A program made the position numbers and the translations under genes. A DNA stretch of 64,000 nucleotides from Candidatus Dojkabacteria bacterium (lineage in GTDB: Bacteria; Patescibacteriota; Dojkabacteria; SC72; JAHDCA01). Where the stretch lies: assembly GCA_030583845.1 (NCBI GenBank), contig CP129478.1, positions 779,686-843,685 of the forward strand. The letters run 5' to 3'. Position 1 is the first letter of the stretch, and each line of letters begins with the position of its first letter. The notes below the pieces were generated by a model. That model had not been told where the DNA came from, made no database searches, and saw only the letters and a list, made by a program, of their open reading frames with translations. Positions 1 to 14,605 of the stretch are shown in pieces.

Positions 1-3000
1 CAGTAAGGGACTCAGATACACATGCTGTAGTGTTTACTGGTACAGCGACCTCGGTCAATAATGAGGTATATCATTTAGGCTTTGGAACCGGTGATCAAAG
101 TATCTATGTCGGTGCTGAGTGGTATATGGATTGTGATATGCCTGTGTACTCATATACACGCAAATTTGCTGTGTATGATTTCATGAACTGGACCTATGCT
201 CATATGCGTCAGTACACCTATCCAGAGCCAGCGCCTACTGTCGGTGCTGAGCAGGTATTATATGCACCTTCTGGAAGCTGGGAGTCTTCGAGTGAAGCAG
301 GCGATGTAATAGATATAGTGTGGAATGGAGGATGGGGGGATGGGACTCCGTCATCGACCGCATTTGAAGCAGATCTGACAGGCGCAACCGTAAGTGAGAA
401 TGTAACATTTCAGATCCGAACAGCAGAAGACCTAGAAGATCTTGAAGCTGCTTCATATACAACACTTGGTGTGGCAACATCCTCACCGTTTATACTTACA
501 GCTGATGACCTCGGCAACCTTGGTGTGGCTGTAGGATTCCATCGGTACATCCAGATCCGTGCGACATTAACTACTGGTGATGAGGCCGTTAGTCCGGCCT
601 TAGAGACATTCACGCTTAGCTATCTTCGAGATGACCTTGCTCCTACTACAAATGCGACAAATGTAGAATTATCTGTCGGTGATCCGGATTCATGGGTGAG
701 GGTTGATCCGACAATCGTATGGGATGCTGCTGACGACGATGCGCTTGGAAGTGGTGTAATGGGTTACTGTGCAGCTTTGGACGAGGTTGGGCTGTCTGAC
801 CCTCCCCCAAACAATGATCCTGAGACATCTTCGGGTATTTTAAACCCTGCTGACAGCGAGATCACACACCCATCGTGCCCATTTATTGTCTCAGGTGAGG
901 CATTTGATCTGTCGACACTTGGGAGCTTAGATCTTGAGTCTGGGCAACGATACTATCTATCTCTAAAGGCTATAGACTTTGCTGGCAATGTCTACAGTGG
1001 CATTGGATTCCAAAATCTATTGAGCTTCAGATTTGATAGCGCTGTGCCGAAGAATGTTGACTATATTAGCGTGCCTAATACGGTGTTTGGCTCGGTAGAT
1101 GACATGTTCTTTAGCTGGCCATCGGCTGGTGCTGCTGCCTCAGACGATCTCTATAACGGTGAAGAGCTCTCCGGTGTACATGGGTGGCAATACTCAATAA
1201 ACTCGACCACGGATTGGGGAGGGACAGATTATGACGCAGCTCTTGGGATATATTACATCCCTGATGACGGCCTGACCTACGAGCACACGCTCTCGGACGC
1301 GATAGATGGCGAAGATATCGCAATAGGGAATAATATAATATATGTAAGGACAGTCGATAGCGCCGGGAATCTTTCTTCGCACGTAACGGGTGTGCTGCAA
1401 TTTGGTGGAGAAGCACCGCAATTTGCGCCTGACGCTGAGATCACCATTACACCATCAACGAACACTGTAAACTCGTACTCGCTATCATGGCCAGAGGCAA
1501 ATCCTACAGATGGCAATACAATTGAATCGTACTACTACATGATAAACAGGACTCCCCCGAGCAATTTTGCGACACTAAGCACCAACAGCTCTATCTATAT
1601 ACCAACGGAGTCGACCACAGTGCCTACAGGACAACTGACCGGATCGGTTCGTGGCAGCAATAGTGTATGTGTCGTAGCAGTCGATAATGAGAATAACTAT
1701 TCAGCATCAAATAGCCTATGTGGCGAGTATACCTTAGATTCAACGGTGCCTGATCCTGTTCAGAATCTCTTCGTGACAGATAGCTCTGTCAGGACAAACG
1801 AGCTTTGGAGGTCAACGATAGTGTGGGAAGCTCCAGGATATCAAGGGACAGGTCAGCTTACTTACATCGTACAAAGAAGTCCTGATGATAGCTCTTGGAC
1901 CACCGTCGCAACCACCCCAGGTTTGGCTCATACGGATATAGTCCCTGAGTCTCAGCTATACTATTATCGTGTTGGGGTCTACGACACAAGTGATGAGTCA
2001 ATAGCGTCGCCGACATTCTCGACTTCCGTATCAATAATTCCAAGAGGGAGCTATACAGAGCCCGCCGACCTAGTGAGTGGCCCGAAAGTTGTTGAACTAA
2101 GCACCACTAACGCGCTCATTACATGGACAACCGGGCGTGGATCTGACAGCAAGGTGCAGTACGGGCTTGCTTCAGGTGAGTACTTTGATGAGGAGCCTTC
2201 AAAAGGTGAGCAGGTTAATGATCATGAAATAAGATTAATCAATCTTCGCCCAGGCACACAATACTTCTATAGAGCTAAATGGTCAGACGAGGACGGAAAC
2301 CTTGGAATATCAGATGAACAATCATTCGTGACCCAGCCAGCACCTGTTGTGACAGATCCTGCGATTACAAGAGTTAGCCTTAATTTCGCTACACTAAGAT
2401 TTACAGTACAGAATGCTTCCGCAGTGAAGATATATTATGGCAAATCGGCTTCGTTTGGAGGGGCTGAGGAGATCTCGACAGCCACTAGTAGGTCTACTTA
2501 TTCCGTAAACATTGAGGGTCTGGATGATGGATCTAAATACTTTTATAAAATAAATACATTTGATCCTGAAGGGAATGAGTATGAAGGTGTAGTTCTCAGC
2601 TTTGAGACGCTTCCGCGGCCGCAAGTATCAAATATCCGCATACAGCAGGTTAAAAATAGTGCCCAACCATCGATTGTTGTCACCTGGGACAGCAACACCG
2701 AGATTACCAGTGTAGTTTCTTACTATCCGACCAGTGATCCAGTGAATAGGCTTGAGGAAGTTGATATAGAGTTAATTAAAGGTGAGCATCAGCTTTTGAT
2801 ATCTAACCTTCAAGCTGAGACACAGTACGGACTTATCGTCTCAGGTGTCGACAGATTGGGAAATGAGGCACTCTCTTCTGAGCAGGTATTTACAACAGCA
2901 ACAGATACTCGACCTCCATTGATCAGTGATGTGAGTGTAGAGAGTTCTATAGTGGTAACAGAGGATGGGACAAGCACAGCCCAGCTTGTTGTATCGTGGA

Positions 3001-3278
3001 ATACAGATGAAGACGCAACCTCGCAGGTAGAGTACGGTATCGGAAATAGTACGGAGTATACCCAGAGAACCAGAGTTAATACTGATTTGAGTCTAAATCA
3101 CCTCGTAGTTATTTCTGAGCTTGATCCTTCAGCCGTTTATCATCTCAGAGTGCTTTCACAAGACTCGCAGGGTAACCAAGCGCAGTCAGGTGATATTATT
3201 ACGATAACACCGAAGCGTACTGATTCAGCGTTCGAACTAGTAGTAAACGGATTAAGAGATATATTTGGTTTCCTATAA
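1..3278 (+). CDS. 5'-partial giant secreted protein with tandem FN3 / purple-acid-phosphatase-N-like beta-sandwich repeats
   Basis: The frame is open to the window edge, and the listed start at nt 30 is only the first alternative start after an out-of-frame TAG. At least five degenerate repeats carry an FN3-like signature, e.g. ITWTTGRGSDSKVQYGLASGEY...LRPGTQYFYRAKWSDEDGN and VKIYYGKSASFGG...GSKYFYKINTFDPEGNE. There is no C-terminal TM segment. An ABC ATPase gene follows 2 nt downstream. Confidence 0.6.
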   Translation, partial: VRDSDTHAVVFTGTATSVNNEVYHLGFGTGDQSIYVGAEWYMDCDMPVYSYTRKFAVYDFMNWTYAHMRQYTYPEPAPTVGAEQVLYAPSGSWESSSEAGDVIDIVWNGGWGDGTPSSTAFEADLTGATVSENVTFQIRTAEDLEDLEAASYTTLGVATSSPFILTADDLGNLGVAVGFHRYIQIRATLTTGDEAVSPALETFTLSYLRDDLAPTTNATNVELSVGDPDSWVRVDPTIVWDAADDDALGSGVMGYCAALDEVGLSDPPPNNDPETSSGILNPADSEITHPSCPFIVSGEAFDLSTLGSLDLESGQRYYLSLKAIDFAGNVYSGIGFQNLLSFRFDSAVPKNVDYISVPNTVFGSVDDMFFSWPSAGAAASDDLYNGEELSGVHGWQYSINSTTDWGGTDYDAALGIYYIPDDGLTYEHTLSDAIDGEDIAIGNNIIYVRTVDSAGNLSSHVTGVLQFGGEAPQFAPDAEITITPSTNTVNSYSLSWPEANPTDGNTIESYYYMINRTPPSNFATLSTNSSIYIPTESTTVPTGQLTGSVRGSNSVCVVAVDNENNYSASNSLCGEYTLDSTVPDPVQNLFVTDSSVRTNELWRSTIVWEAPGYQGTGQLTYIVQRSPDDSSWTTVATTPGLAHTDIVPESQLYYYRVGVYDTSDESIASPTFSTSVSIIPRGSYTEPADLVSGPKVVELSTTNALITWTTGRGSDSKVQYGLASGEYFDEEPSKGEQVNDHEIRLINLRPGTQYFYRAKWSDEDGNLGISDEQSFVTQPAPVVTDPAITRVSLNFATLRFTVQNASAVKIYYGKSASFGGAEEISTATSRSTYSVNIEGLDDGSKYFYKINTFDPEGNEYEGVVLSFETLPRPQVSNIRIQQVKNSAQPSIVVTWDSNTEITSVVSYYPTSDPVNRLEEVDIELIKGEHQLLISNLQAETQYGLIVSGVDRLGNEALSSEQVFTTATDTRPPLISDVSVESSIVVTEDGTSTAQLVVSWNTDEDATSQVEYGIGNSTEYTQRTRVNTDLSLNHLVVISELDPSAVYHLRVLSQDSQGNQAQSGDIITITPKRTDSAFELVVNGLRDIFGFL

Positions 3279-3280
3279 TT

Positions 3281-4120
3281 ATGAACCAGGATATGGTTAC
3301 AGACATACAGATAGCTTCAGCTAAGTCATCGAAAGGTGACAGGAGTGAACAGTTCGCGTTGCAGAAGGATGCGATAACTGTATCAGATGTCAGGAAGGTC
3401 TTTAAAGTTGGCGAGCAAGATGTAGAAGTACTAAAAGGTGTGAGTTTGGCGATAAACCGTGGAGAGTTCACTATACTATTTGGACCCTCGGGGTGTGGAA
3501 AATCTACACTGCTTCATTTAATTCTTGGTTTGGAGGATCCAACAGCGGGAGAAGTAGACTTCATGGGGGTAAAGTTGAGCGGTAGCAATGATCCTAATTT
3601 TACTTCGACTTTTCGTAAGCTCAATATCGGCATGGTGTATCAGCAATCGCTCTGGGTAAAATCTTTATCTGTTCGAGAAAATGTCGCTCTTCCTCTAATG
3701 CTTGCCGGCACAAATAAAAATCAGGCTTTGAATCGATCTATCGAGATGCTTAGAATGGTTGGTATGCTCGATTGGGCGGACTATTTCCCTACAGAGCTGT
3801 CTGCTGGACAGCAGCAACGCACAGCAATGGCTAGGGCATTGGTTAATGACCCGGAAGTAATAGTGGCAGACGAGCCCACAGGTAATCTTGATTTTGAAAG
3901 CGGTAAAGATATGATGAGTCTATTCTATAAATTGAACCATGAATTAGGTAAGACAGTGATCTTAGTAACGCATGACTTGGAGTATCTGATTTATGCTGAT
4001 AAAGCATTCCAGATGTTAGATGGCCAAGTAATCGCAACACATGATAAGGGTGCTATTGAAGAGCTGCTGCACCATAATATTGGTCTAAAAAAGAACGGTA
4101 ATAATCATGAAGAAGCTTAA
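3281..4120 (+). CDS. ABC transporter ATP-binding protein (MacB/LolD/FtsE-like)
   Basis: Walker [16 protein letters not shown] signature LSAGQQQR and Walker [13 protein letters not shown] are present. It is tightly coupled to the flanking genes. Confidence 0.85.
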
Positions 4121-6122
4121 GATTGGCGCAAGCACCAAGAGATGGTTCAATCCGCATAATATTGCGGGCAAATTAAGAGCCGCTACCTTTGAGTTGAACT
4201 ATATTGTCCGATTCCTGTTTATTGTAAATGTATATGTTGTCACACGTACGATTCAGAAGATTCTGGCAATCAGGATTTTTCCATCTCTAGTTGCGTCGCA
4301 TTACAATATTTTCGCACTTAAAACATTTGCCTTCCTCAATCGTGTTGGTGATATGAAGCGGTATCCTAACAATATGACAATACTTACGATACTTGATCTC
4401 GCATTGAAAAACTTGAAATTCAAAAGGAGCAGAGCTTTTATTACAGTTAGTGGAGTATCATTAGGTATTGCGACTATCGTGTTTTTGGTGTCCCTCGGCT
4501 TTGGTCTCCAGGAGCTAGTAATTAGCAGAGCGATTTCACTCAAAGAGATGAGGCAAGCAGAGGTCGATACACAGCCCGGGAGCAAATTGAAGTTAAACGA
4601 TTCAGCTGTTACAGATATTAAAAAAATCTCGGAAGTGGATGAGGTTTTCCCAGTCATCGCAGTGGTGGGTAAGGTTGAGTACTCCGAATCTACATCGGAT
4701 ATTGCTATCTATGCTGTGCCAGGTGGTTACCTCGAGGAGTCGGCAATAAATATTGTCGAGGGTACACTGTTTGACGGCAAGATGGCTGTGGCAGGAGAAG
4801 GCGAGCAGGATGTTCTTGGTATCGGTACATACTCCGGGCACCCAGGTTTAGATAACTATCTTGGGAATGTGATAATGGGTGAGAGTGAGCCCGTATGGCT
4901 AGCTGTCAGGGTAACGCCGGATAAAGATTCTAGACTACTTGGATGGACTAATGCCAGGCTTTTAAAGGATAAAGCAGCCTCACATGTAAGCGGAGGTAAG
5001 TATCTGTACGCAGACGAGGAGAAGAATGACTGGTTCTATGGCCATATGCCTCTATGGGCCAAAGGAAGATGCTCGGAGGAGTGTGCAGATACTATTTATG
5101 AGCCGGTAAGAGATGACCGTGGTTATCAAACGAACGAGTGGGGTTACATCGAGAATCAGTATCTGGAGTACCAAAGTACTATTGTACCTAAGCCATCTGA
5201 AGAAGGGCTGAGTAGTGCTGTTCTTGGAGCTTCACTCGAGCTTTCTGACACCGTGGATCTGGAGTTTATTGAGATAGATGATGAGGAAGAGACCACAGAA
5301 AACGTCGTCGAAAAGGTTAATCTGGCAGCAAATGCTGAGAGAGTCGTCATCGTGAATCGTTCTGTGCTAAACCTATTGGGTGTTTCGGAACAGGAGGCGG
5401 TAGGTAGGAAACTTAAACTTGGCTATTCTGTCACCAATGAGTTGATATCAGAAGCAGGTTCACGAATCGAGTCGGTGCCAGAAGAGTATACAATTGTTGG
5501 AGTCACCTCTGATGAAAGCAGCCCATTTGCTTTCGTACCAATAACCGATCTTAAAGGTATCGGTGTTGCCAACTACTCACAGCTCAGAGTTGTGGCTGAA
5601 AGCAATGAGGCTCTAAGTGATATACGAAAGAAGATCGAGTCATTAGGGTTTGCGACTTCTTCTGTCGCAGATACCAAGGAACAGATAGATCAATTCTTTG
5701 CCACAGCTAGGATCATTCTCGCACTTGTGGGTAGCTTTGCCCTTGCTGTTGCATGCCTAGGAATGTTTAACACATTGACGGTATCACTCTTGGAAAGAAC
5801 CAGAGAGGTTGGGTTGCTTAGAGCCATGGGTATGCGTCCCGAGGAGGTAAGGATGCTTTTCCTCTCCGAGTCGATGATCATGGGCTTTTATGGTGGTGTT
5901 GGTGGACTGCTTTTAGGCTTCTTCATCGGTAAGCTATTAAGCATCGCTCTCTCTTTCCTATCTATAAGTAAAGGGTATGGGTTTATCGATGTGACGAATA
6001 TACCGATCTTGCTAGCTCTTGGTGTGGTAATGATCTCGTTCTTTGTTGGATTTGCAACTGGATTATATCCTGCTAACCGCGCCACCAAGATCTCGGCGTT
6101 GAACGCCTTGAGATACGAGTAG
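4107..6122 (+). CDS. ABC transporter permease, FtsX/MacB family with a large extracytoplasmic domain
   Basis: The C-terminal block LRAMGMRPEEVRMLFLSESMIMGF...ATKISALNALRYE is typical of FtsX/MacB permeases. An N-terminal TM follows KFKRSRAFITVSGVSLGIATIVF, and the insert between TM1 and TM2 is about 400 aa. The ATG at 4107 overlaps the ATPase stop (ATGA coupling), but the first ~80 aa are unlike the family, so the true start may be the ATG at 4353. Confidence 0.7.
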   Translation: MKKLKIGASTKRWFNPHNIAGKLRAATFELNYIVRFLFIVNVYVVTRTIQKILAIRIFPSLVASHYNIFALKTFAFLNRVGDMKRYPNNMTILTILDLALKNLKFKRSRAFITVSGVSLGIATIVFLVSLGFGLQELVISRAISLKEMRQAEVDTQPGSKLKLNDSAVTDIKKISEVDEVFPVIAVVGKVEYSESTSDIAIYAVPGGYLEESAINIVEGTLFDGKMAVAGEGEQDVLGIGTYSGHPGLDNYLGNVIMGESEPVWLAVRVTPDKDSRLLGWTNARLLKDKAASHVSGGKYLYADEEKNDWFYGHMPLWAKGRCSEECADTIYEPVRDDRGYQTNEWGYIENQYLEYQSTIVPKPSEEGLSSAVLGASLELSDTVDLEFIEIDDEEETTENVVEKVNLAANAERVVIVNRSVLNLLGVSEQEAVGRKLKLGYSVTNELISEAGSRIESVPEEYTIVGVTSDESSPFAFVPITDLKGIGVANYSQLRVVAESNEALSDIRKKIESLGFATSSVADTKEQIDQFFATARIILALVGSFALAVACLGMFNTLTVSLLERTREVGLLRAMGMRPEEVRMLFLSESMIMGFYGGVGGLLLGFFIGKLLSIALSFLSISKGYGFIDVTNIPILLALGVVMISFFVGFATGLYPANRATKISALNALRYE

Positions 6123-6148: not shown

Positions 6149-7453
6149 TTATTCGTAGCGAAGTGCCTCGATCGGGTCGAGTCTTGAAGCCTTCCTCGCC
6201 GGAATTAATGCCGCAATTAGGCTTATGCTTGTAAGGAAAAGGACGATAGGTATGAGCATCAATGGAGGGAAGAGGAACTGAATCGGCTCATCTACGCCTT
6301 GGCTCTCAAAATAGTTGAACAACAACGGGTTGAAAATAAGCCCACCAACAATCAACGCAGAAACAATGCCCACAACACCTCCCCAGAAGCCGATAAATGC
6401 TCCCTCGATTGAGAATAAAGCAAACACTGTGCGATTCGACATCCCGATGGCCTTCATTAAGCCTATCTCTTTAGTTCTTTCGTATACGCTCATTAGCATC
6501 GTATTTAAGATTCCAAAAAGCGATGCAAAGATTACGATACTTGAAAATCCAACAAGCCCTGAAGTAATGTAGACCCCTGCACTTTGCGCCAGCTGATTTA
6601 ATTGGGCAAAATTGAAGTATTGATAACCTTCCTTGTTTAGCTCGTCGGTGACCTTCTTCTCGGTCTCAGCTGTTGTGTCTTCAAGTACTAATACAGCTGT
6701 TTGAGCAGATGCCAATAGCGGATTCTCAGCACCTAGCTGCTCAGTCTGGATCTCTAGAGCCTTCACCTCTGTAATATAGAATGCTTCTGTATCAGTAATG
6801 CCTGTCGATTTGACTCCAACAATTTCCAATTCGTCAGAAACGATCACGCCACTGCTATCAAGATAGCTGATTGTAATGCTCTTCCCAACCAGCCTCTCTA
6901 CTTCTTCGGGATCGTGCTTGTCCAACTCCGCTGTCTCAAGATACTCCTCGGTGACAACAGTTTCGTCATCATCTTCTGGCAAGCGCCCTGCAAGCAGTTG
7001 CAGCTTCAGATCTGGATAGAAAAGTGTAGTGTTTGTTTGATATTTCCCCTCGACATCTTCGATCTCGACATATTGAACTTCGGTCGAGTAGTTGTAATAG
7101 ACCGAATCGACACCGTCGAGCGATTCAAAGTAGCTTCTATCATCCTGATTTAAGATAGGTATCCCACCAGCACTAACATTCGCCTGCTCTTCTGGCTCCT
7201 CATACTCTTCTAATCCAGTAGCTCCAGGCTCTCTTTCATTGGCGAAGTCACCGCCTGGGAAGACAGAGAGACTCCCTTCAGCTTCGACATTATTTAGCTC
7301 GCGGTTAAAAAGTGTGATTACACCGATTCCTGCGCCAAGCGCTAGTGTAAGCGTAGTACCTCCAACTGCCACTGCTAATATGGTCAGTAAGCTTCTGGTC
7401 TTTGACTGGACGATATGTCTATTACTTTTGATAAATATATCTTTAATCTTCAT
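6149..7453 (-). CDS. ABC transporter permease, FtsX/MacB family
   Basis: N-terminal MKIKDIFIKSNRHIVQSKTRSLLTILAVAVGGTTL and C-terminal MKAIGMSNRTVFALFSIEGAFIGF...ARKASRLDPIEALRYE match the family. It overlaps the upstream ATPase gene by 11 nt and converges on the plus-strand permease. Confidence 0.8.
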   Translation of the reverse strand: MKIKDIFIKSNRHIVQSKTRSLLTILAVAVGGTTLTLALGAGIGVITLFNRELNNVEAEGSLSVFPGGDFANEREPGATGLEEYEEPEEQANVSAGGIPILNQDDRSYFESLDGVDSVYYNYSTEVQYVEIEDVEGKYQTNTTLFYPDLKLQLLAGRLPEDDDETVVTEEYLETAELDKHDPEEVERLVGKSITISYLDSSGVIVSDELEIVGVKSTGITDTEAFYITEVKALEIQTEQLGAENPLLASAQTAVLVLEDTTAETEKKVTDELNKEGYQYFNFAQLNQLAQSAGVYITSGLVGFSSIVIFASLFGILNTMLMSVYERTKEIGLMKAIGMSNRTVFALFSIEGAFIGFWGGVVGIVSALIVGGLIFNPLLFNYFESQGVDEPIQFLFPPLMLIPIVLFLTSISLIAALIPARKASRLDPIEALRYE

Positions 7454-8114
7454 CTACGATTTTGCCGTCAACTAATTCTATCTGTCTTCCACACTTCTCT
7501 GCCAAATCTTCATCGTGCGTGACAATAACCAATGTTGTATTAAGCTCCGCATTCAACCCAAAAAGAATCTCTTCAATCTTGCGACCAGTTGCACTGTCGA
7601 GGTTGCCAGTCGGCTCATCAGCGAAAACTACCTGTGGCTGATTTATCAATGCCCTTGCGATGCATACTCGCTGCTTTTGGCCACCTGAAAGCTCATTCCC
7701 TTTATTTTTTGCCTTATCTTCCATCTCTACCAGTTTTAGCATCTCCATAACCTTTTCGTTGACCTCGCTCTTTGGCCTGTTCAATAGTAGTAGTGGAAAT
7801 GCAACATTGTCGTACACGCTTTCGCTATTAAACATGAAGAACGATTGGAATATGAAGCCGATATTTTCATTGCGGAATCTATTGAGCTGGCGTGACTTGA
7901 AATCGCGGAGATCTTTGCCGTTAAAGTTGATATTTCCTTCAGTTGGGGTATCAAGCGCGGCCAGTAAATGCATAAGCGTGGACTTGCCAGACCCTGACTT
8001 GCCAAGTATCGCCAAGCTCTCTCCTTGATCAATCTGTAGTGATACACCATCAAGCGCAGTAAAGCTGGTTTTACCCATCTTGTAAATTTTGGTGATGTTG
8101 TCTGCGCGAATCAT
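7443..8114 (-). CDS. ABC transporter ATP-binding protein (MacB/LolD-like)
   Basis: Walker A GKSGSGKSTLMH, signature LSGGQKQR and Walker [13 protein letters not shown] are present. Confidence 0.85.
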   Translation of the reverse strand: MIRADNITKIYKMGKTSFTALDGVSLQIDQGESLAILGKSGSGKSTLMHLLAALDTPTEGNINFNGKDLRDFKSRQLNRFRNENIGFIFQSFFMFNSESVYDNVAFPLLLLNRPKSEVNEKVMEMLKLVEMEDKAKNKGNELSGGQKQRVCIARALINQPQVVFADEPTGNLDSATGRKIEEILFGLNAELNTTLVIVTHDEDLAEKCGRQIELVDGKIVDED

Positions 8115-8175
8115 TCAACAGATATATTAGCACGAAAGCATATCTGAGGTACAGCTGACGTCAAGGCGAGGGGAT

Positions 8176-8787
8176 CTATAACTCCTCCGATTTCTTGTCT
8201 CTTCTTCGCCTCATAAAGATAAAAATCGCTGGTAGAAGGAGCAGAAGTAAACCACAAGAACTGACACTTCCTGCTACGAAGGTCGCTGTATCTATACCGA
8301 ATATAAGGCCATCGTCATTTTCCTCTCCACCGCCACCTCTGTTGTCACCGTCATCACTACCGCCATCGTCGTCATCGTCACTGTCAGGGTCATTCGGGTC
8401 ATTGTCCCTGCCGTCTGTGTCTTCCCCGCCATCACTGTCTCCATCGCCATCATCTGGATTGCTGCTTGAACCGCCGTTACCAGAGCCATTGCTGCTACCA
8501 CCCGACCCGCCATTCTCCTCTTCTTCTTCCTCACCACCGCTATCGCCTGGATCATCAGGTGGGTCATCGGGTGGCTCAGGATCTGGGAATTCTGAATTAT
8601 CGCCCCACGACTCACATCCTGGATCTGTGCCGAAGTCTATTGCACCATCGCCATCGTTGTCCATTCCGTCATTGCACTCCTCGAACCCGTAGATATATTG
8701 ATAAAATGTGGAAGCATAAGAGTGCTGAGCAGACAGAGCTAGGAGGAGCAAACAAAGGTAAATTGTGATCTTTCTTGCGAGATTCAT
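8176..8787 (-). CDS. Secreted Asp/Gly-rich acidic protein with a thrombospondin-type-3-like Ca-binding repeat and a C-terminal Cys-TM-RRRR anchor or sorting-signal-like tail
   Basis: A signal peptide MNLARKITIYLCLLLLALSAQHSYA is followed by CNDGMDNDGDGAIDFGTDPGC, a C-x-D-x-D-N-D-G-D-G-x-x-D...C motif. There is a ~120-aa D/G/S/E low-complexity region. The C-terminus is SVSSCGLLLLLLPAIFIFMRRRRDKKSEEL. The antisense ORF 8195..8692 is a low-complexity shadow. Confidence 0.5.
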   Translation of the reverse strand: MNLARKITIYLCLLLLALSAQHSYASTFYQYIYGFEECNDGMDNDGDGAIDFGTDPGCESWGDNSEFPDPEPPDDPPDDPGDSGGEEEEEENGGSGGSSNGSGNGGSSSNPDDGDGDSDGGEDTDGRDNDPNDPDSDDDDDGGSDDGDNRGGGGEENDDGLIFGIDTATFVAGSVSSCGLLLLLLPAIFIFMRRRRDKKSEEL

Positions 8788-8794
8788 CTTTCAA

Positions 8795-11700
8795 TTAGTT
8801 TGAAACAACCGATAGGCTCATATTAATTGAATAATTGCCACTTGCTTGTTCAGCAGGGATTTTCTGAGATACTTCAATCCCTGTAATATCCCAGTAACAG
8901 CCTGTGTCAGCAGTTCCATCTGCCTGAACAAGTAAAATGCTGTCGGTCGTTCCTTGAACATAGCCTGCGTCTGAGCCAACAGTAATCCCCGTCGCACTAC
9001 AGCCGCCCTCTGGAGTTATAGTTACATTGGAAAGATCGATGCTTAGCTGACCCTTATATGAGTCGGCATCACCGCCGTCGCCACATCCAGCAGGTGATCC
9101 AGCACTGTCATTGAAGTCGTAGCTTGATGACCAGCTGGAGGTAATCCCGTCGGCAGCTGCTAATGATAAAGTCCAGGAGGGGTTCGATCCACTATTGTAG
9201 ACACGAATCTTTTCGTTCGCGACTCCGAATGTGCCCGTGGTTGTTTGGCATGCAAAGCTTGCAGTTGCAATAGAGAAGGCAATAGAAGGGTTCGAGACAG
9301 TAGTGCCACCGCTATCGACGATGTCGACCGATATTATATCCTGTTCGACTTCTGCCCAGCGATAACTTGCCATTGCGAAATCGATATCATCGGTAACAGA
9401 TGTCGAAATTGAGGAGTTTAGTGTCCTGAGCCTAAAGTTTATTAGCTCTGCACCTGAATCAATATAGTAGTAAGGGCTAGTGATGAATGCCTTGATACCC
9501 GCTGTTTGAGTAAATTTGCTATCTCCATATCCAAATGAAGTACCAGAGTTACTAAGCTGTGAGGCGCTCCACCCTGAGACTCCAAGCCTGGCTGAATAGT
9601 CTTTTATACCGAGTTGTCGAGTAATCGATACACTGTTTGAGCGTATCCGAGCAGCCCAATGAATTGCAGTGATTGAGCTGCCCGAACCTATCTCAGTAGG
9701 AAAAGATAGATTAGTAGATATTGCAGATTCACCGTTGTTACCATCATCATCATTATCAAGAGAGTAAAATGATGAGATATACTCTGTGGTTGAGCTAACC
9801 TGCCATGTGCTACCAGCAGAACTACCTCCGTCAGCGGAGCCTGCATCCCTTGTATTTGTACAGTCGGTTGCAGTACCGCTTCCCCAAGCGATCTCGCAGA
9901 GGCTACTATCTGTATTGGTTGAGCCTAGCATTACATATAGAGCATCAAGGCTCATCGTGTGCGTATTGCTACTGGCTGTGGCTATCCTTACTCTAATTTC
10001 ACCACTGCTAATATAGTTAGAAAGAGTTACATTATTCTTTGCATACGAATACACAGTGTCTGTTGCACATGCTGTGCCTGTAACTGCCCCGCTAGTTAAT
10101 GCTTCCCAGCTGGTGCTATTAAAATTATAGATATAGATATCAAATGTGAGAGCTGAATTCGAGAGACACACTTCAGGTTTTACAAGGATGGTATTTGCTG
10201 ATGTGTAGGCCTCTACGTTTTTAAACGAGAAATATACATCTAGCGGGTTGGTAGCATCATTGGTCATTGTGAACTTGTTACCATCGCTTGCAGCAGCTCC
10301 AATCATGTCAGAGATATAGTTTGATGTAGATCCTGTGTATGGTGATATCTTTGTAAATGCTGCCGGTTCGTAGATTGGGTCGATACCGACCTCAACGGCT
10401 GCGTAGTCAAGCCTATGTTGCACTGTTGAGGCTACAGTAGAGTAGACCCTAACCAGTACTGTATCGCTTGATCCACCAATAAAATTTGTAAGTGGGGTGG
10501 AGTATGCTGTTCCAGGTGATGAGCTTCTGTCTGAGAAGAAACCGTCATAAACAGCATACTCCCTGAGAGTATCAGTAGTGTTTGTATGATCTGCTTTCCG
10601 ATCGTTTAAGGTCCTCCAACCTCCACCTGTGCACTGGGCATCCGCAGCGTTGTCCACGCCAGTCGATGAGACCCAGTCACAGATCTGATGAGAATAGGCA
10701 TTACCTGTTGTTATATTGGTATCCTCTATGGTAATGAACAGTTTATTTGCGCCATACAGGTTTATGTTATCAAATGTAAGTTGCTTATCCAGACCTGAAG
10801 CATTGTCTCTTGCAGTCGTCCAGTAGTTTGACGTCCCATCAGACTGAACATCAGAGCCAAGTGTGCCTTTCCACGATCCGGTATTAGTTTGTGAGGTGGA
10901 GACCTCAGCCCCAGTAATTAACGCGCCACCAGTCGCGGTTCGCTTTGTTAGCAAGGTTATTCTGTCGGTTTCCTCAACCCATCTGATACTCATCATTGCA
11001 AAAGCCCAGTCTCTGCTACCTGGGTCCGATGTATTGCCTGCACTTGTCCTAAGTCGAAGATTCATAATATTGCTTGAGGTGTCTACATACATTGGTGCGT
11101 CGGTCTGGATCTCTGTAGTTACCCAGCTGTCCGACCATGTATAAGTGGAGCTGTTGCTGTTATCTGATCCTGGAGTATCCGTCCATCCGGTGGTCACATT
11201 TTGTCCAGCATACGTTCTTAATTGAGGCGATGCGGTTTGGTTAGAATTATTTGAACGATGCTTTGTCGCAAAATGCATAGCGGTTATAGACATGTTCGAG
11301 CTAGTAGTTACTGGAAACGAAAGATTCTGTGAGGCAGCGTACTCGTTGTCGTTTGCATCATCATCGTTATCCTGGGCATAAAAGGATGAAGGATACTCCA
11401 GCGTTGCAGCCGCCTGCCAAGTCGAGCCTGATGGTGCCCCTGTCTTACCAACATCTACATACCTTGTGTTTACGCAGTTTGTCGCAGTTCCGGTCCCCCA
11501 TGATATCTCGCACTTAGAGCTGTCACTATTGATAGCTCCTACCATCATGTAAGACCTATCAATCTGTATATTGTAAACCGATGCAGGAGCGTTAGTGACA
11601 ACTCTAAATCGTACCTCTCCAGACGAAATATGCTCATTCAGATCAAAACCGCCAATGAGCGAATCGTTGAAGGAGAATGCGTAATCTGTATCACTGGGGC

Positions 11701-12742
11701 AGGCTGTTGATGCTGGTGGGGATGGGATTGAGGTCCAGTTTGTGTCAGCAAAATTGTATAAGCTTATCGATGATAATGTTAGGCTGGCATTTGACATACA
11801 CAGCTCTGTGGCCACCAATAGCGTGTTTGCGCCATTGAATGTCTCTACATTTTTAAATGTTAAATAGTACTCGATTGCAGTCGACGTCGCTGACATTGGA
11901 ATAGTCAATTTAGTGCCGTCCGAAGCATCTGCTGCTGCCGGGCTACCGACGATGTCTGATATATAGTTCGTAGCAGACCCTGCCGCGGTAAGTGTGATGT
12001 CTGACGGTTCATATATCGGATCAACGGCAACCTCTATGCGAACCATGTCTGTACGGAATGAGGTTGTATCGTTTGTTGTAGAGTATGATCGCAATAATAC
12101 TTTGTTATTGCTTGATGCATTAATAAAATTGCTCATCGGGGTAGAAGCGACTGTTCCTGGTGATGAGCTTCTTGATGAGAAGTAGCCATCGTAGATCTCA
12201 TACGTTCTTGCGGTGTCGGTGTTGTTTGTCCAAGTAGTCCTCCGGGGGTGCAGTGTCCTCCATCCACCAGTTGTACAGTTTGCATCTGCAGCATTGTCAA
12301 CAGCAGTCGAAGAAGTCCAATCACAGATCTGATGAACGTAATCGATCGAATTAGTAATATTTGAGTCCTCAAAGTAGATGATGATTTTGTTGCCACCAAG
12401 CATTGAGACATTGTTGAAAGCAAATTGCACGTCAAGACTTGGGCTCGCAGCGGCTCTTGCGACAGTCCAGTAGTTGTCATCTGACCCGAATGTGCCTTTC
12501 CACGAGCCGGTGTTGCTGTTGTCTGTTGATGCCTCGGAGCCGACAACCAAAGTTCCACCACTTACCATGTAGTTTGAATCGGCTCTTACACTATCAACTG
12601 ATCCTGCATTTTCAGAGTTCTGTGTAGCATCTCTATTAGTGATATAGTAAAGATTGGCAAGCAGCACCACTACTAACAGCAGCGCCATCAGGGCTCCTCT
12701 TAATCCTATGCTCAGGTTTTTCCTTCTAATTTCTCCTGTCAT
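8795..12742 (-). CDS. Giant (1315 aa) membrane-anchored or secreted surface protein with an internal ~480-aa tandem duplication and a C-terminal domain paralogous to ORF 13928..14605
   Basis: The N-terminal TM/signal is LRGALMALLLVVVLLANLYYI. Two homologous halves begin SWKGTFGSDDNYWTVARAAA... and SWKGTLGSDVQSDGTSNYWTTARDNA..., each containing HQICDW.SST.VDNAADA.CT.GGWRTL. The protein is rich in N-x-S/T sites and ends ...GNYSINMSLSVVSN. Confidence 0.6.
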   Translation of the reverse strand: MTGEIRRKNLSIGLRGALMALLLVVVLLANLYYITNRDATQNSENAGSVDSVRADSNYMVSGGTLVVGSEASTDNSNTGSWKGTFGSDDNYWTVARAAASPSLDVQFAFNNVSMLGGNKIIIYFEDSNITNSIDYVHQICDWTSSTAVDNAADANCTTGGWRTLHPRRTTWTNNTDTARTYEIYDGYFSSRSSSPGTVASTPMSNFINASSNNKVLLRSYSTTNDTTSFRTDMVRIEVAVDPIYEPSDITLTAAGSATNYISDIVGSPAAADASDGTKLTIPMSATSTAIEYYLTFKNVETFNGANTLLVATELCMSNASLTLSSISLYNFADTNWTSIPSPPASTACPSDTDYAFSFNDSLIGGFDLNEHISSGEVRFRVVTNAPASVYNIQIDRSYMMVGAINSDSSKCEISWGTGTATNCVNTRYVDVGKTGAPSGSTWQAAATLEYPSSFYAQDNDDDANDNEYAASQNLSFPVTTSSNMSITAMHFATKHRSNNSNQTASPQLRTYAGQNVTTGWTDTPGSDNSNSSTYTWSDSWVTTEIQTDAPMYVDTSSNIMNLRLRTSAGNTSDPGSRDWAFAMMSIRWVEETDRITLLTKRTATGGALITGAEVSTSQTNTGSWKGTLGSDVQSDGTSNYWTTARDNASGLDKQLTFDNINLYGANKLFITIEDTNITTGNAYSHQICDWVSSTGVDNAADAQCTGGGWRTLNDRKADHTNTTDTLREYAVYDGFFSDRSSSPGTAYSTPLTNFIGGSSDTVLVRVYSTVASTVQHRLDYAAVEVGIDPIYEPAAFTKISPYTGSTSNYISDMIGAAASDGNKFTMTNDATNPLDVYFSFKNVEAYTSANTILVKPEVCLSNSALTFDIYIYNFNSTSWEALTSGAVTGTACATDTVYSYAKNNVTLSNYISSGEIRVRIATASSNTHTMSLDALYVMLGSTNTDSSLCEIAWGSGTATDCTNTRDAGSADGGSSAGSTWQVSSTTEYISSFYSLDNDDDGNNGESAISTNLSFPTEIGSGSSITAIHWAARIRSNSVSITRQLGIKDYSARLGVSGWSASQLSNSGTSFGYGDSKFTQTAGIKAFITSPYYYIDSGAELINFRLRTLNSSISTSVTDDIDFAMASYRWAEVEQDIISVDIVDSGGTTVSNPSIAFSIATASFACQTTTGTFGVANEKIRVYNSGSNPSWTLSLAAADGITSSWSSSYDFNDSAGSPAGCGDGGDADSYKGQLSIDLSNVTITPEGGCSATGITVGSDAGYVQGTTDSILLVQADGTADTGCYWDITGIEVSQKIPAEQASGNYSINMSLSVVSN

Positions 12743-12745
12743 AAC

Positions 12746-13900
12746 CTACTCCCTTGGAGGGATTTTAATTTTCCTTCCAGCTTCGATATTATACGGAGGC
12801 TTAATCTTGTTTGCATTCGCCAGCTTTTTCCAGCCGATGTTGTTTCTTTTCGCTATTTCTTCTAGATTTTCGCCGCTCTTTATTGTGTAGGTATCCCATC
12901 TCATCTTAATCTCGTTTCGGTGGGCAATCCGAAGCCAGATAGCAGCCCCAACTGCGATGACCAAGGCCAATACACCCAGCTCTATCAAGGCATTCCTTGG
13001 TTGGGGTAGGAATAGGAGATACTTCGGCTCAGAGGATATAGATGTATTTGGCGCCTCTGAGTCCACTCCAACACTTGCTTCGCTGCTGTTGTCGTACTCA
13101 ACTATTGCGCTTGTTTTGATCAGGCCTCCCCACTCCGGTGGCTGTAGGTCAATATTAAATACACCGGTGTCACCACGAAGTATCGGATATTGACTGATTT
13201 CTTCATGGCTTCCAATACCCCAGAAATAGGCGGTTACAAGATGAAGCTTGGCGTCGATCGATACATTCCCATCGTTTCTGATCTCGGTTCGTGTGGTTAT
13301 CAGCGACCTGCTGGCCTGATTGGCTCGAAAAGAGGTTAGGCTTAATTTCCTGACCTGCTCACCCGGCACAGTTACTACCACTCTCAAGCCGGTTCTAAAT
13401 GATAAGCTCACCCCGGATCCACTTCCAGTGGGGTCTTTTTTCTCTTGTAACATTATGCACCCATTTTGTTCACCTACATCCGCTACCTCTGGCACCTCAA
13501 CGTTGAACCTTACACTTGTACTTGTGTGAGCAGCCAAGTCTAGCTCTTCGGCCTCAAGATTAATCCACCCTCCCACTTTATCTTTGCTGTCGAGATACTG
13601 CTCGCAAGCGAAAGAGCCGTCGGTGGATTTCTGAGAGTCAGTGGCATATAGAAGCACCGTCTTGTCTTGATCTGTGTTATTGATGACTAGGATCTCATCC
13701 TCTTCGCTTACACCAGGTGCGAGATTGTAAATAAAAATCGATTTGGTTCTCTCGTTATCTGGGTCTGGGTGAGCAGGCTTCAGTCCGATACCTTCATATT
13801 CAATGGCAGCGGCTGAAGAAGTGCTATATAAAGTGAAAAGAATCACACAAATTGACAGTTTTGCTAGCCTTGCTGGCGTAGCGAGTTTCTGTTTGAGCAT
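12746..13900 (-). CDS. Secreted/anchored protein with a C-terminal TM segment followed by a LysM domain
   Basis: It has a signal peptide, a ~290-aa ectodomain, a TM segment LIELGVLALVIAVGAAIWL, then YTIKSGENLEEIAKRNNIGWKKLANANKIKPPYNIEAGRKIKIP, which fits the LysM consensus. It starts 4 nt downstream of the giant gene. A resemblance to DUF916-type WxL-interacting surface proteins is only a guess. Confidence 0.55.
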   Translation of the reverse strand: MLKQKLATPARLAKLSICVILFTLYSTSSAAAIEYEGIGLKPAHPDPDNERTKSIFIYNLAPGVSEEDEILVINNTDQDKTVLLYATDSQKSTDGSFACEQYLDSKDKVGGWINLEAEELDLAAHTSTSVRFNVEVPEVADVGEQNGCIMLQEKKDPTGSGSGVSLSFRTGLRVVVTVPGEQVRKLSLTSFRANQASRSLITTRTEIRNDGNVSIDAKLHLVTAYFWGIGSHEEISQYPILRGDTGVFNIDLQPPEWGGLIKTSAIVEYDNSSEASVGVDSEAPNTSISSEPKYLLFLPQPRNALIELGVLALVIAVGAAIWLRIAHRNEIKMRWDTYTIKSGENLEEIAKRNNIGWKKLANANKIKPPYNIEAGRKIKIPPRE

Positions 13901-13927
13901 AGGTTTATATCCCGCAGAATCTAAGTT

Positions 13928-14605
13928 TTAGTTGCTAACTACAGACAGAACCATGTTGATATCGTAGTCTGAAGCGGCTGCTTGCTGTGCAGGAATATCT
14001 TGGTCTACATCGACACCTATTAATGCCCAATCACCGATATCGTCGGAGCCTGCAGCTGCAGTTAGGAGTGTGATACTGTCGGTAGTACCCTGAACAAACG
14101 AAGCGGCTGAGCCTTTAGTGATGTTGGTGGTAGTACAGCCTGAGCATGCACCTGCTGTTAATGTGCCAACCGACGCATCAACTGTCATCTGTCCACCAAC
14201 CGAGTCTGCATCACCACCATCTGTACAGCCACCACCCGATGAGTCGTTAAAATCGTAGTCAGAAGCTGCTCCATCCCATACTGCTGTTGCAGCTGATCCG
14301 GCGAGACTTGCTGACCATCCGTTATCCGCAGCGTCTGGGTTTGAGACATAGATTCTCTGAGATGCCGTACCGAAAGTTCCTGAGCTTGTCTGACAAGCAA
14401 ATGAGAATGTTGCAGTAGGAAATGCAACGCTTGGGGAACCAACTGTAACATATGATCCGTCAACAATATCAATCGCAAGCGTTCCTGCGTTAATTGTTTG
14501 GGTGAAGTTTGAGGTGTCTAGTGCGTATACTGATGCACCGAAGAAAGAAAGTGTAGATATAATAGTAGCTAATAGTAAAATTCCCTTGGCAGCTCGAGCT
14601 TTCAT
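13928..14605 (-). CDS. Small secreted protein, stand-alone paralog of the C-terminal domain of the 1315-aa protein
   Basis: After a signal peptide it aligns to the last ~190 aa of 8795..12742: DIVDGSYVTVGSPSVAFPTATFSFACQTSSGTFG vs DIVDSGGTTVSNPSIAFSIATASFACQTTTGTFG, and YDFNDSSGGGCTDGGDADS vs YDFNDSAGSPAGCGDGGDADS. Both end in SVVSN. Confidence 0.55.
   Translation of the reverse strand: MKARAAKGILLLATIISTLSFFGASVYALDTSNFTQTINAGTLAIDIVDGSYVTVGSPSVAFPTATFSFACQTSSGTFGTASQRIYVSNPDAADNGWSASLAGSAATAVWDGAASDYDFNDSSGGGCTDGGDADSVGGQMTVDASVGTLTAGACSGCTTTNITKGSAASFVQGTTDSITLLTAAAGSDDIGDWALIGVDVDQDIPAQQAAASDYDINMVLSVVSN

Follow-up and report, generated by a model that had tools for sequence, protein, structure and literature searches.

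A conserved surface-protein cassette of Candidatus Dojkabacteria and other Patescibacteria resembles the WxL gene clusters of Gram-positive bacteria

WxL gene clusters are defined by a small WxL protein (a signal peptide followed by a domain of ~180 aa), a WxL-interacting protein (WxLIP) and a large WxL protein (PMC9772566, PMC10599100). The WxLIP combines a DUF916 domain (PGBD), a DUF3324 domain (HBD) and a transmembrane (TM) helix, large WxL proteins carry adhesin-type N-terminal domains with the WxL domain always C-terminal, and the clusters often include an LPxTG protein; Firmicutes account for more than 91% of the WxL sequences known (PMC9772566, PMC10599100). Known examples, from Lactobacillales/Bacillales, are csc of L. 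plantarum, Swp/Lwp/Duf of E. faecium and Elr of E. faecalis, in which PF13731 occurs with PF06030/PF11797. Complexes of the Swp, Lwp and Duf proteins are supported by pull-down and Biacore experiments (PMC9772566, PMC10599100), and in AlphaFold2 (AF2) models of such complexes a disordered hairpin of the WxLIP becomes a strand that slots into a gap of the WxL beta-sandwich and so completes it (PMC10599100). The subject of this report is a cassette in Candidatus Dojkabacteria, a member of the Patescibacteria or candidate phyla radiation (CPR). It lies in a window of 64,000 nt, by which the whole stretch of DNA analyzed is meant (contig CP129478.1, positions 779,686 to 843,685), and encodes a small secreted protein, a WxLIP-like middle protein, a giant surface protein and an acidic fourth protein (Table 1). 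This cassette looks like a strongly diverged, unannotated variant of the Gram-positive WxL surface display system.

A sequence-only reading of the window, made without database searches, had noted a collinear C-terminal domain of ~190 aa common to the giant and the small protein. Both open reading frames (ORFs) exist as described, at 8795..12742 and 13928..14605, and the common domain was borne out by BLASTP, which aligned giant aa 1137-1315 with small-protein aa 43-225 at 96/186 identical residues (52%; 67% positives; E = 1e-45). No further ORF of the 64-kb window matched a hidden Markov model (HMM) of the domain or a scan for its tail. The same reading had compared a domain-only small protein and a large protein with the domain at its C-terminus to WxL-type families, and this likeness in architecture is strongly backed by the WxLIP-like gene between the two, by the gene order in Enterococcus and by the published definition. 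In a Pfam-verified cluster on an Enterococcus raffinosus megaplasmid, comprising a small WxL protein, a WxLIP (PGBD and HBD), a 113-aa LLKTG-anchored protein and a large WxL protein, the gene order and sizes are like those of the CPR cassette. As in WxL clusters, the CPR small protein is acidic, secreted and domain-only, with about 180 mature residues; the middle protein has a DUF916/PGBD domain, a putative second immunoglobulin (Ig)-like domain and a TM helix; the large protein has a variable adhesin-type N-terminus and the same domain at its very C-terminus; and a small anchored fourth protein takes the place of the LPxTG protein. The architecture by which Hassan & Williamson define a WxL gene cluster was found in the window and in about 55 CPR loci, with the CPR domain standing where a Pfam-recognized WxL domain would be.

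The middle gene ties the cassette to known WxL clusters. Its product matches Pfam WxLIP_PGBD (DUF916, PF06030) at E 2.2e-8 (34.6 bits, against a gathering cut-off of 27.3) and is laid out as a signal peptide, the PGBD, a second beta-domain, a TM helix and a basic tail with LysM; PF06030 and PF01476 are precomputed on most of its CPR homologues. When the CPR WxLIP-like proteins were built into a profile, it matched aa 16-336 of a bona fide Enterococcus WxLIP (E 3e-10), a span that includes the HBD and the TM helix, and also DUF916 proteins of Arthrobacter (E 1e-18) and Cohnella (E 3e-10). Because of these matches, the middle gene is a true WxLIP relative. The Pfam HBD model PF11797 did not match the window protein, and a second departure is the LysM, which is absent from the canonical family and here follows the single TM helix within a tail of pI 10. 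This LysM is the sole sequence hint of peptidoglycan binding by the cassette, and its position behind the TM helix bears on the role of that helix in WxLIPs and on the published debate over which membrane it enters.

The cassette is widely conserved. HMMER, run exhaustively against 1.84 billion representatives (E <= 1e-3), returned 700 clusters of the domain family; the domain ends at the protein C-terminus in 150/150 of those listed, in proteins of 107-1961 aa, the shortest of which are probably truncated. A locus scan using one genome per GTDB species, with ORF calling and local HMMs on the returned loci, yielded 79 loci, mostly labeled as Patescibacteria lineages, and the order small protein, WxLIP/LysM protein, large protein recurs in about 55 of them, from many CPR lineages. 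Some "binchicken" metagenome-assembled genomes (MAGs) labeled Gammaproteobacteria, Pseudomonadales, Ectothiorhodospiraceae or Christensenellaceae carry the same cassette; some MAG labels are unreliable, and we take these to be mislabeled. Cassette proteins from CPR with a source name are annotated as "hypothetical protein" or "LysM ... protein." None of the papers listed in a literature search linked WxL or DUF916 with CPR, and a Saccharibacteria Tn-seq paper made no mention of WxL, DUF916 or LysM. Directly upstream of the main cassette, four loci (two labeled Kerfeldbacteria, one Microgenomates and one "Gammaproteobacteria") have an additional pair of small and WxLIP/LysM genes that is more divergent. 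The small-type protein of this pair has 208-213 aa in three loci and is a 287-aa ORF in L061 (E ~1e-46 to the profile), its WxLIP/LysM-like partner has 418-424 aa, and the pair looks like a tandem paralogous cassette without a large protein of its own.

The small protein has a Sec signal peptide, an acidic mature part and conserved Cys at positions 71, 127, 154, and 157. Its identical counterpart in the database search is locus tag QY318_03615 (Candidatus Dojkabacteria MAG), and a word-indexed search gave 954 homologues. Among the best 120 of these 954, none has a Pfam domain and almost every one has a length of 214-260 aa; where a source is named, it belongs to one of several CPR phyla (Kerfeld-, Nomura-, Peregrinibacteria and others). 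Fifty aligned homologues are 60-83% identical to the window protein, a level that holds across phyla, whereas identities are 28-68% in the WxLIP and 35-53% in the large-protein domain, and such conservation, like the patescibacterial host, sets the CPR small protein apart from its WxL counterparts. Residues 29-43 are nearly invariant, with S32, F34, G41, and L43 invariant, and form a conserved free N-terminal peptide, STSNFTQTINAGTL, that has no conserved equivalent in the consensus of the large-type domains. In the AF2 monomer, the blocks covering residues 21-40 are unstructured, with a predicted local distance difference test score (pLDDT) of 51-53. The small gene occurs in two or three tandem copies in L023, L029, L046, and L073 (about 7000..8700 in each). 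In loci labeled Peribacteria/Gracilibacteria (L009, L013, L024, L032), ORFs look fragmented under genetic code 11, probably because UGA is read as a sense codon.

The domains of the small and large proteins form two old paralogous subfamilies. The nearest neighbor of a domain is of the same type in 72/74 cases, and mean identity is 55% among small-type and 48% among large-type domains vs. 43% between the two. The motif GDWxL marks the small type and C[YFWH]W, mostly CYWD, the large type; small-type domains were also found on four large proteins. Since both subfamilies are old, we reject the idea that the shared domain arose by recent duplication or by gene conversion. In the window's giant protein, the domain has the motifs W-T-L-S-L-A and C-Y-W-D and Cys at 1165, 1220, 1248, and 1282. 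The conserved Trp of GDWxL or CYWD, the four conserved Cys and an acidic DYDFND...DGxDADS loop are all additions relative to WxL domains. This loop, at D116-D134 of the small protein (DYDFND...GC.DG.DADS), is specific to CPR and contains a conserved Cys; together with the four Cys it suggests Ca2+ binding and disulfides, as for an extracellular domain.

N-terminal to the shared domain, the large proteins vary greatly. In about 55 loci they range from 340 to 2179 aa, with the domain at the extreme C-terminus. An 877-aa large protein of Kerfeldbacteria has only its last 180 aa in common with the window giant (54% identity), and the N-termini of the two are unrelated. PATR beta-helix repeats, a ConA-like lectin domain (Laminin_G_3) or Ig domains were present in 5/10 sampled large proteins. 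The giant itself has an internal duplication, two modules of ~540 aa that are 47% identical over 542 aa (E 1e-156), and this double-module N-terminus is of a rarer type, in a group of 5 among 113 large proteins. Pfam has no family for the repeat modules. For part of module 1 (giant aa ~167-275) there is a match to PDB chain 11ok_A, "Phage tail tube protein" (E 3.2e-5, 26 bits), and module 2 had no match in the same comparison. The fourth protein has an N-terminal Cys motif, ECNDGxDNDGDGxIDFxxDPxC, an acidic low-complexity linker, a C-terminal TM helix and an RRRR tail. Across homologues the conserved motif extends to ECNDG[MI]DNDGDG[AG]IDF..DP.C.SW.D.SEFPDP, and the protein matches the NCBIfam acidic double-disulfide repeat at E 7.6e-5. 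A homologue directly follows the large gene in about 20/55 loci. No LPxTG motif was seen on reading the fourth protein, and TIGR01167 reached only E 0.27, on the TM part; its anchor is a TM helix on an acidic protein, whereas the Enterococcus counterpart has LLKTG.

Several results weigh against equating the shared domain with WxL, and the cassette with a WxL cluster. The WxL model PF13731 (E <= 0.1-10) was compared with the two window proteins, 50 small homologues, 41 further CPR domains and two family consensus sequences, and matched none of them, so that the WxL affiliation suggested by the sequence-only reading received no backing from HMMER; in positive controls the model recognized E. 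raffinosus WxL proteins (E 9e-15 to 2e-7) and the C-terminus of a large protein of Embleya (8.8e-6). Among CPR members and consensus sequences, the shared domain had no NCBIfam match. Scanning window proteins, family members and consensus sequences with Pfam, NCBIfam and PADLOC assigned it to no family, with weak matches only, to Peptidase_M73/camelysin (E 0.057, one member) and to DUF4402 (E 0.009-0.1), of which a literature search gave no mention. Profile comparison by hhalign between the CPR domain and Enterococcus WxL gave P = 0.055, 0.0038, 0.016, and 0.024, depending on the alignment, at a probability of <=9%; across all comparisons, including actinobacterial ones, probabilities were low (1-25%) and P only 0.0007-0.1. 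Enlarging the CPR profile to 216 sequences did not raise the significance, and a WxL profile pooled with actinobacterial sequences scored 20.9, which was matched by 5/60 shuffles. Of the two Trp in the dual WxL motif, the second is missing, with Met or Leu taking its place in a motif-2 position that reads [ML]-x-L-S, and the acidic Cys loop has no WxL counterpart. In the WxLIP-like protein, the LysM lies behind the TM helix of a protein whose N-terminal signal is cleaved, and is therefore predicted to be cytoplasmic, which would be odd for a peptidoglycan-binding module and misfits simple peptidoglycan anchoring.

Other comparisons point toward WxL. The hhalign alignment took the same collinear path every time, through both WxL motif positions. 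At motif 1, CPR I-Y-V-x-N-P-D-A-x-D-x-G-W-x-x-S-L-A falls on WxL V-G-V-Q-D-K-T-R-x-x-x-x-W-x-L-K-A; at motif 2, CPR I-P-A-E-Q-x-x-x-x-Y-x-I-N-M-x-L-S falls on WxL I-P-x-x-x-x-V-x-A-G-x-Y-x-G-x-I-x-W-N-L-S. Within these segments, CPR W97-x-[LV]-S-L-A is aligned with WxL motif 1 and I-N-M-x-L-S with the I-N-W-N-L-S of motif 2, and motif 1 takes the form W-x-L-S-[LIV]-A in 29/38 large-type domains and W-x-[LVA] in small-type ones. The WTL and WAL tripeptides that had been pointed out in the two window proteins are indeed present, but at non-equivalent positions, as WTL of the giant pairs with WSA of the small protein and WAL of the small protein with WDI of the giant. The CPR-WxL hhalign score of 26.5 compares with 17.4 +/- 3.1 in block-shuffled controls and was reached by 1/60 of them. 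AF2 models of the CPR small protein (pLDDT 74, moderate) and of an Enterococcus small WxL protein (pLDDT 88) have 12 strands each, which are in corresponding order when mapped along the hhalign alignment, and the top-60 lists of structural matches to the two models have 23 chains in common. These models are consistent with placing both predicted folds in the same Ig-like pilin/adhesin class, by which homology is not proven. A PDB sequence profile search with the CPR and WxL alignments returned no match, and therefore neither family has a solved relative. Because PF13731 does not match and the profile alignment is collinear but not significant, homology of the CPR domain to WxL is plausible, mainly on context, but unproven.

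Actinobacterial sequences may narrow this gap. On plasmids and other replicons of Arthrobacter, Streptomyces and Embleya, there are mini-clusters that pair a small or large secreted protein with a DUF916 protein encoded after it. Annotated records (L005, L088, L089) list the partners as "hypothetical protein," and the Embleya stretch is unannotated. The C-terminus of the Embleya large protein matches Pfam WxL (26.3 bits vs. a cut-off of 25, at the E-value given above), and two Arthrobacter small proteins match it sub-threshold, at E 5.5e-4 and 9e-4. Against the CPR profile, the actinobacterial proteins scored 29.9 with hhalign vs. 14.8 +/- 2.4 for shuffled sequences, a value that 0/60 shuffles reached. 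Their I-x-V-T-D-x-R-A-G-x-x-W-x-A-S-V resembles the CPR motif-1 segment, and their C-terminal W-D-x-x-I/V-S-x-x-V-P-A...Y-T-A-T-L-x-x-S-V resembles CPR W-D/x-L-T-G-V-x-x-S-Q-x-I-P-A...Y-x-I-N-M-x-L-S-V; as in the CPR cassette, a small secreted protein lies directly upstream of the DUF916 protein. They differ from the CPR proteins in matching Pfam WxL, in having about 145 mature residues without the acidic Cys loop, and in the lack of LysM on the four DUF916 partners scanned against Pfam. The actinobacterial proteins, as three or four sequences, thus suggest a partial bridge between the CPR domain and WxL. Because these mini-clusters match Pfam WxL at or just below threshold, WxL-type clusters seem to be under-annotated outside Firmicutes.

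Taken together with the gene order and the WxLIP relative, the locus is probably the CPR counterpart of the Gram-positive WxL cluster, its shared domain docking to the WxLIP and displaying a variable adhesin. By analogy with the described complexes, the small and large proteins would both be exported by Sec, and their shared domain would be an incomplete beta-sandwich that serves as the docking module for the WxLIP-like protein. A strand from the PGBD of the latter may complete the sandwich, tethering both proteins non-covalently to the envelope, presumably in association with peptidoglycan. The variable N-terminus of the large protein, here the two ~540-aa modules, would then face outward as an adhesin or lectin, directed, probably, at the host cell or substrate of episymbionts.

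Different accounts of the locus deserve consideration. According to the sequence-only reading, the common C-terminus could be a secretion or sorting signal recognized by the adjacent ABC exporter, and in the window both proteins do end in LSVVSN and a MacB-type ABC transporter is encoded about 60 nt downstream on the same strand. The pentapeptide SVVSN, although true of both window proteins, is no family feature, however: the last five residues form 128 different strings among 336 family members, and SVVSN occurs in 7/336. What is conserved is the pattern M-[TV]-L-[ST]-[VI]-[VT]-A-[SNI], whose alternation is typical of a terminal beta-strand, and the tail of the small protein is modeled as strand 218-224. 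The tail is a variable terminal beta-strand and no tag. Moreover, both proteins have N-terminal Sec-type signals, the transporter is of FtsX/MacB type with a separate ATPase and not a fused type-1-secretion exporter, and a MacB-type ABC lies within 8 kb of the cassette in only about 5/55 loci, at varying positions, being missing in the other 50 or so. Synteny and tail variability rule this candidate out in practice, and we regard it as highly improbable. Within a genome, small and large tails agree at 2.48 of five residues vs. 1.97 +/- 0.12 in random pairings (48 loci, phylogeny not controlled), and they are identical in three loci, the window included; this agreement could reflect co-evolution with a common partner, or just shared phylogeny. 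An account that is unlikely, and carries more weight than a sorting signal, is that the domain is an unrelated, CPR-specific Ig-like envelope domain (for example, S-layer or wall-associated) that binds the envelope alone, such as through its acidic, Ca-binding-like loop, without docking to the WxLIP, its WxL-like architecture having arisen by convergence. The lack of a significant sequence match to WxL fits this account, as do the CPR-specific loop D116-D134 with its conserved Cys and the very high conservation of the small protein, which would suit a structural envelope component. Convergence would nonetheless require coincidence to explain strict adjacency to a true WxLIP homologue in WxL-cluster order at ~55 loci, and the collinear alignment through both motif positions and the actinobacterial intermediates also speak against it.

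A pilus-like product has been considered as well. In donor-strand fiber subunits (the archaic chaperone-usher CsuA/B, PapA; the archaeal CanX, DUF1102 and bundling pilins; TasA-like proteins), an Ig-like sandwich of similar size is completed by a strand of another chain, as is proposed here for the CPR domain. The small protein might likewise polymerize by donor-strand exchange, giving its N-terminal peptide STSNFTQTINAGTL to the subunit that follows. In this scheme the large protein is a tip adhesin with an acceptor-only pilin domain, the WxLIP-like protein would be a membrane base donating the last strand, and the product would be a short pilus-like appendage in place of a monomeric wall-bound complex. 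That residues 29-43 are nearly invariant yet unstructured in the monomer model, and lack a conserved equivalent in the large type, would be explained in this way, as would tandem small genes in some loci and a degree of conservation unusual for a surface protein; strand completion by the WxLIP has already been predicted for WxL (PMC10599100). However, the Enterococcus WxL model ranks donor-strand fibers much lower, polymerization of WxL proteins was not reported in the literature searched, and binding to conserved partners would explain the conservation equally well. A Pfam scan of the cassette genes and their neighbors brought up no usher, chaperone or signal-peptidase family. We consider such a fiber distinctly unlikely. 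There is a similarly slim chance that the cassette encodes a hitherto unrecognized, CPR-wide surface appendage that is assembled by beta-strand complementation, with a membrane-embedded WxLIP-like base, a small protein that polymerizes through its invariant N-terminal peptide and an exchangeable large tip adhesin that sets host choice; if this were true, Firmicute WxL clusters would by extension be the same kind of machine. Overall, docking of the shared domain to a WxLIP, as in WxL clusters, is the explanation that we prefer.

The six genes from the small protein to the permease of the ABC transporter are all on the minus strand and tightly packed, the intervals between them being 27, 3, 7, and 61 nt, plus one 11-nt overlap (Table 1). 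A scan for an operon promoter and terminator gave nothing above chance. On the plus strand (30..6122), an ORF of 1082 aa combines purple-acid-phosphatase N-terminal-like with fibronectin type III domains; after it comes another MacB-type ABC pair (ATPase 3281..4120, FtsX permease 4107..6122), which converges on the first.

Table 1. Features of the cassette and its ABC neighbor in the window, followed by second gene pairs and actinobacterial mini-clusters (coordinates within each named locus).
Feature	Coordinates	Strand	Evidence
Small secreted protein, 225 aa	13928..14605	-	homologue search, alignment to giant
Small protein, signal peptide aa 1-28, cleavage after VYA	14522..14605	-	
Small protein, mature domain-only part aa 29-225 (197 aa), pI 4.05	13931..14521	-	
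WxLIP-like protein, 384 aa	12746..13900	-	Pfam WxLIP_PGBD and LysM
WxLIP-like protein, PGBD/DUF916 aa 41-152	13445..13780	-	Pfam E 2.2e-8
WxLIP-like protein, TM helix aa 305-323	12932..12988	-	
WxLIP-like protein, LysM aa 338-381, in basic tail	12758..12889	-	Pfam E 5.8e-13
Giant surface protein, 1315 aa, N-terminal TM/signal anchor about aa 15-35	8795..12742	-	
Giant, repeat module 1, aa 48-600	10943..12601	-	47% identical to module 2
Giant, repeat module 2, aa 601-1136	9335..10942	-	match to module 1
Giant, shared C-terminal domain aa 1137-1315, large-type subfamily	8798..9334	-	
Fourth cassette gene, 203-aa acidic secreted protein, pI 4.05	8176..8787	-	
MacB-type ABC transporter, outside conserved cassette	6149..8114	-	Pfam
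ABC ATPase	7443..8114	-	Pfam
FtsX/MacB_PCD permease	6149..7453	-	Pfam
Second small and WxLIP/LysM pairs	L010 5914..7833; L025 5926..7867; L027 5953..7888; L061 5683..7858		
Actinobacterial mini-clusters	L005 5374..7026; L088 6299..7876; L089 6253..7852; L087 4285..7912		

A large part of bacterial diversity falls within the Patescibacteria, which live attached to other microbes, and to our knowledge little is known of their attachment beyond type IV pili. The findings described here would extend a WxL-type system, thought to be nearly confined to Firmicutes, to CPR and, via unannotated intermediates, to Actinobacteria. The CPR system has its own features, namely a LysM in the WxLIP tail, a second Trp that has been lost, the acidic loop with its Cys, a fourth protein that is acidic and TM-anchored, and a very highly conserved small subunit. 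A conserved secreted small protein together with a hypervariable large protein bearing lectin or adhesin domains is what one would expect of a conserved display scaffold whose host-recognition heads can be exchanged. Viewing the cassette as a WxL/WxLIP-type system offers a concrete, testable mechanism, along with candidate genes for the genetically tractable Saccharibacteria.

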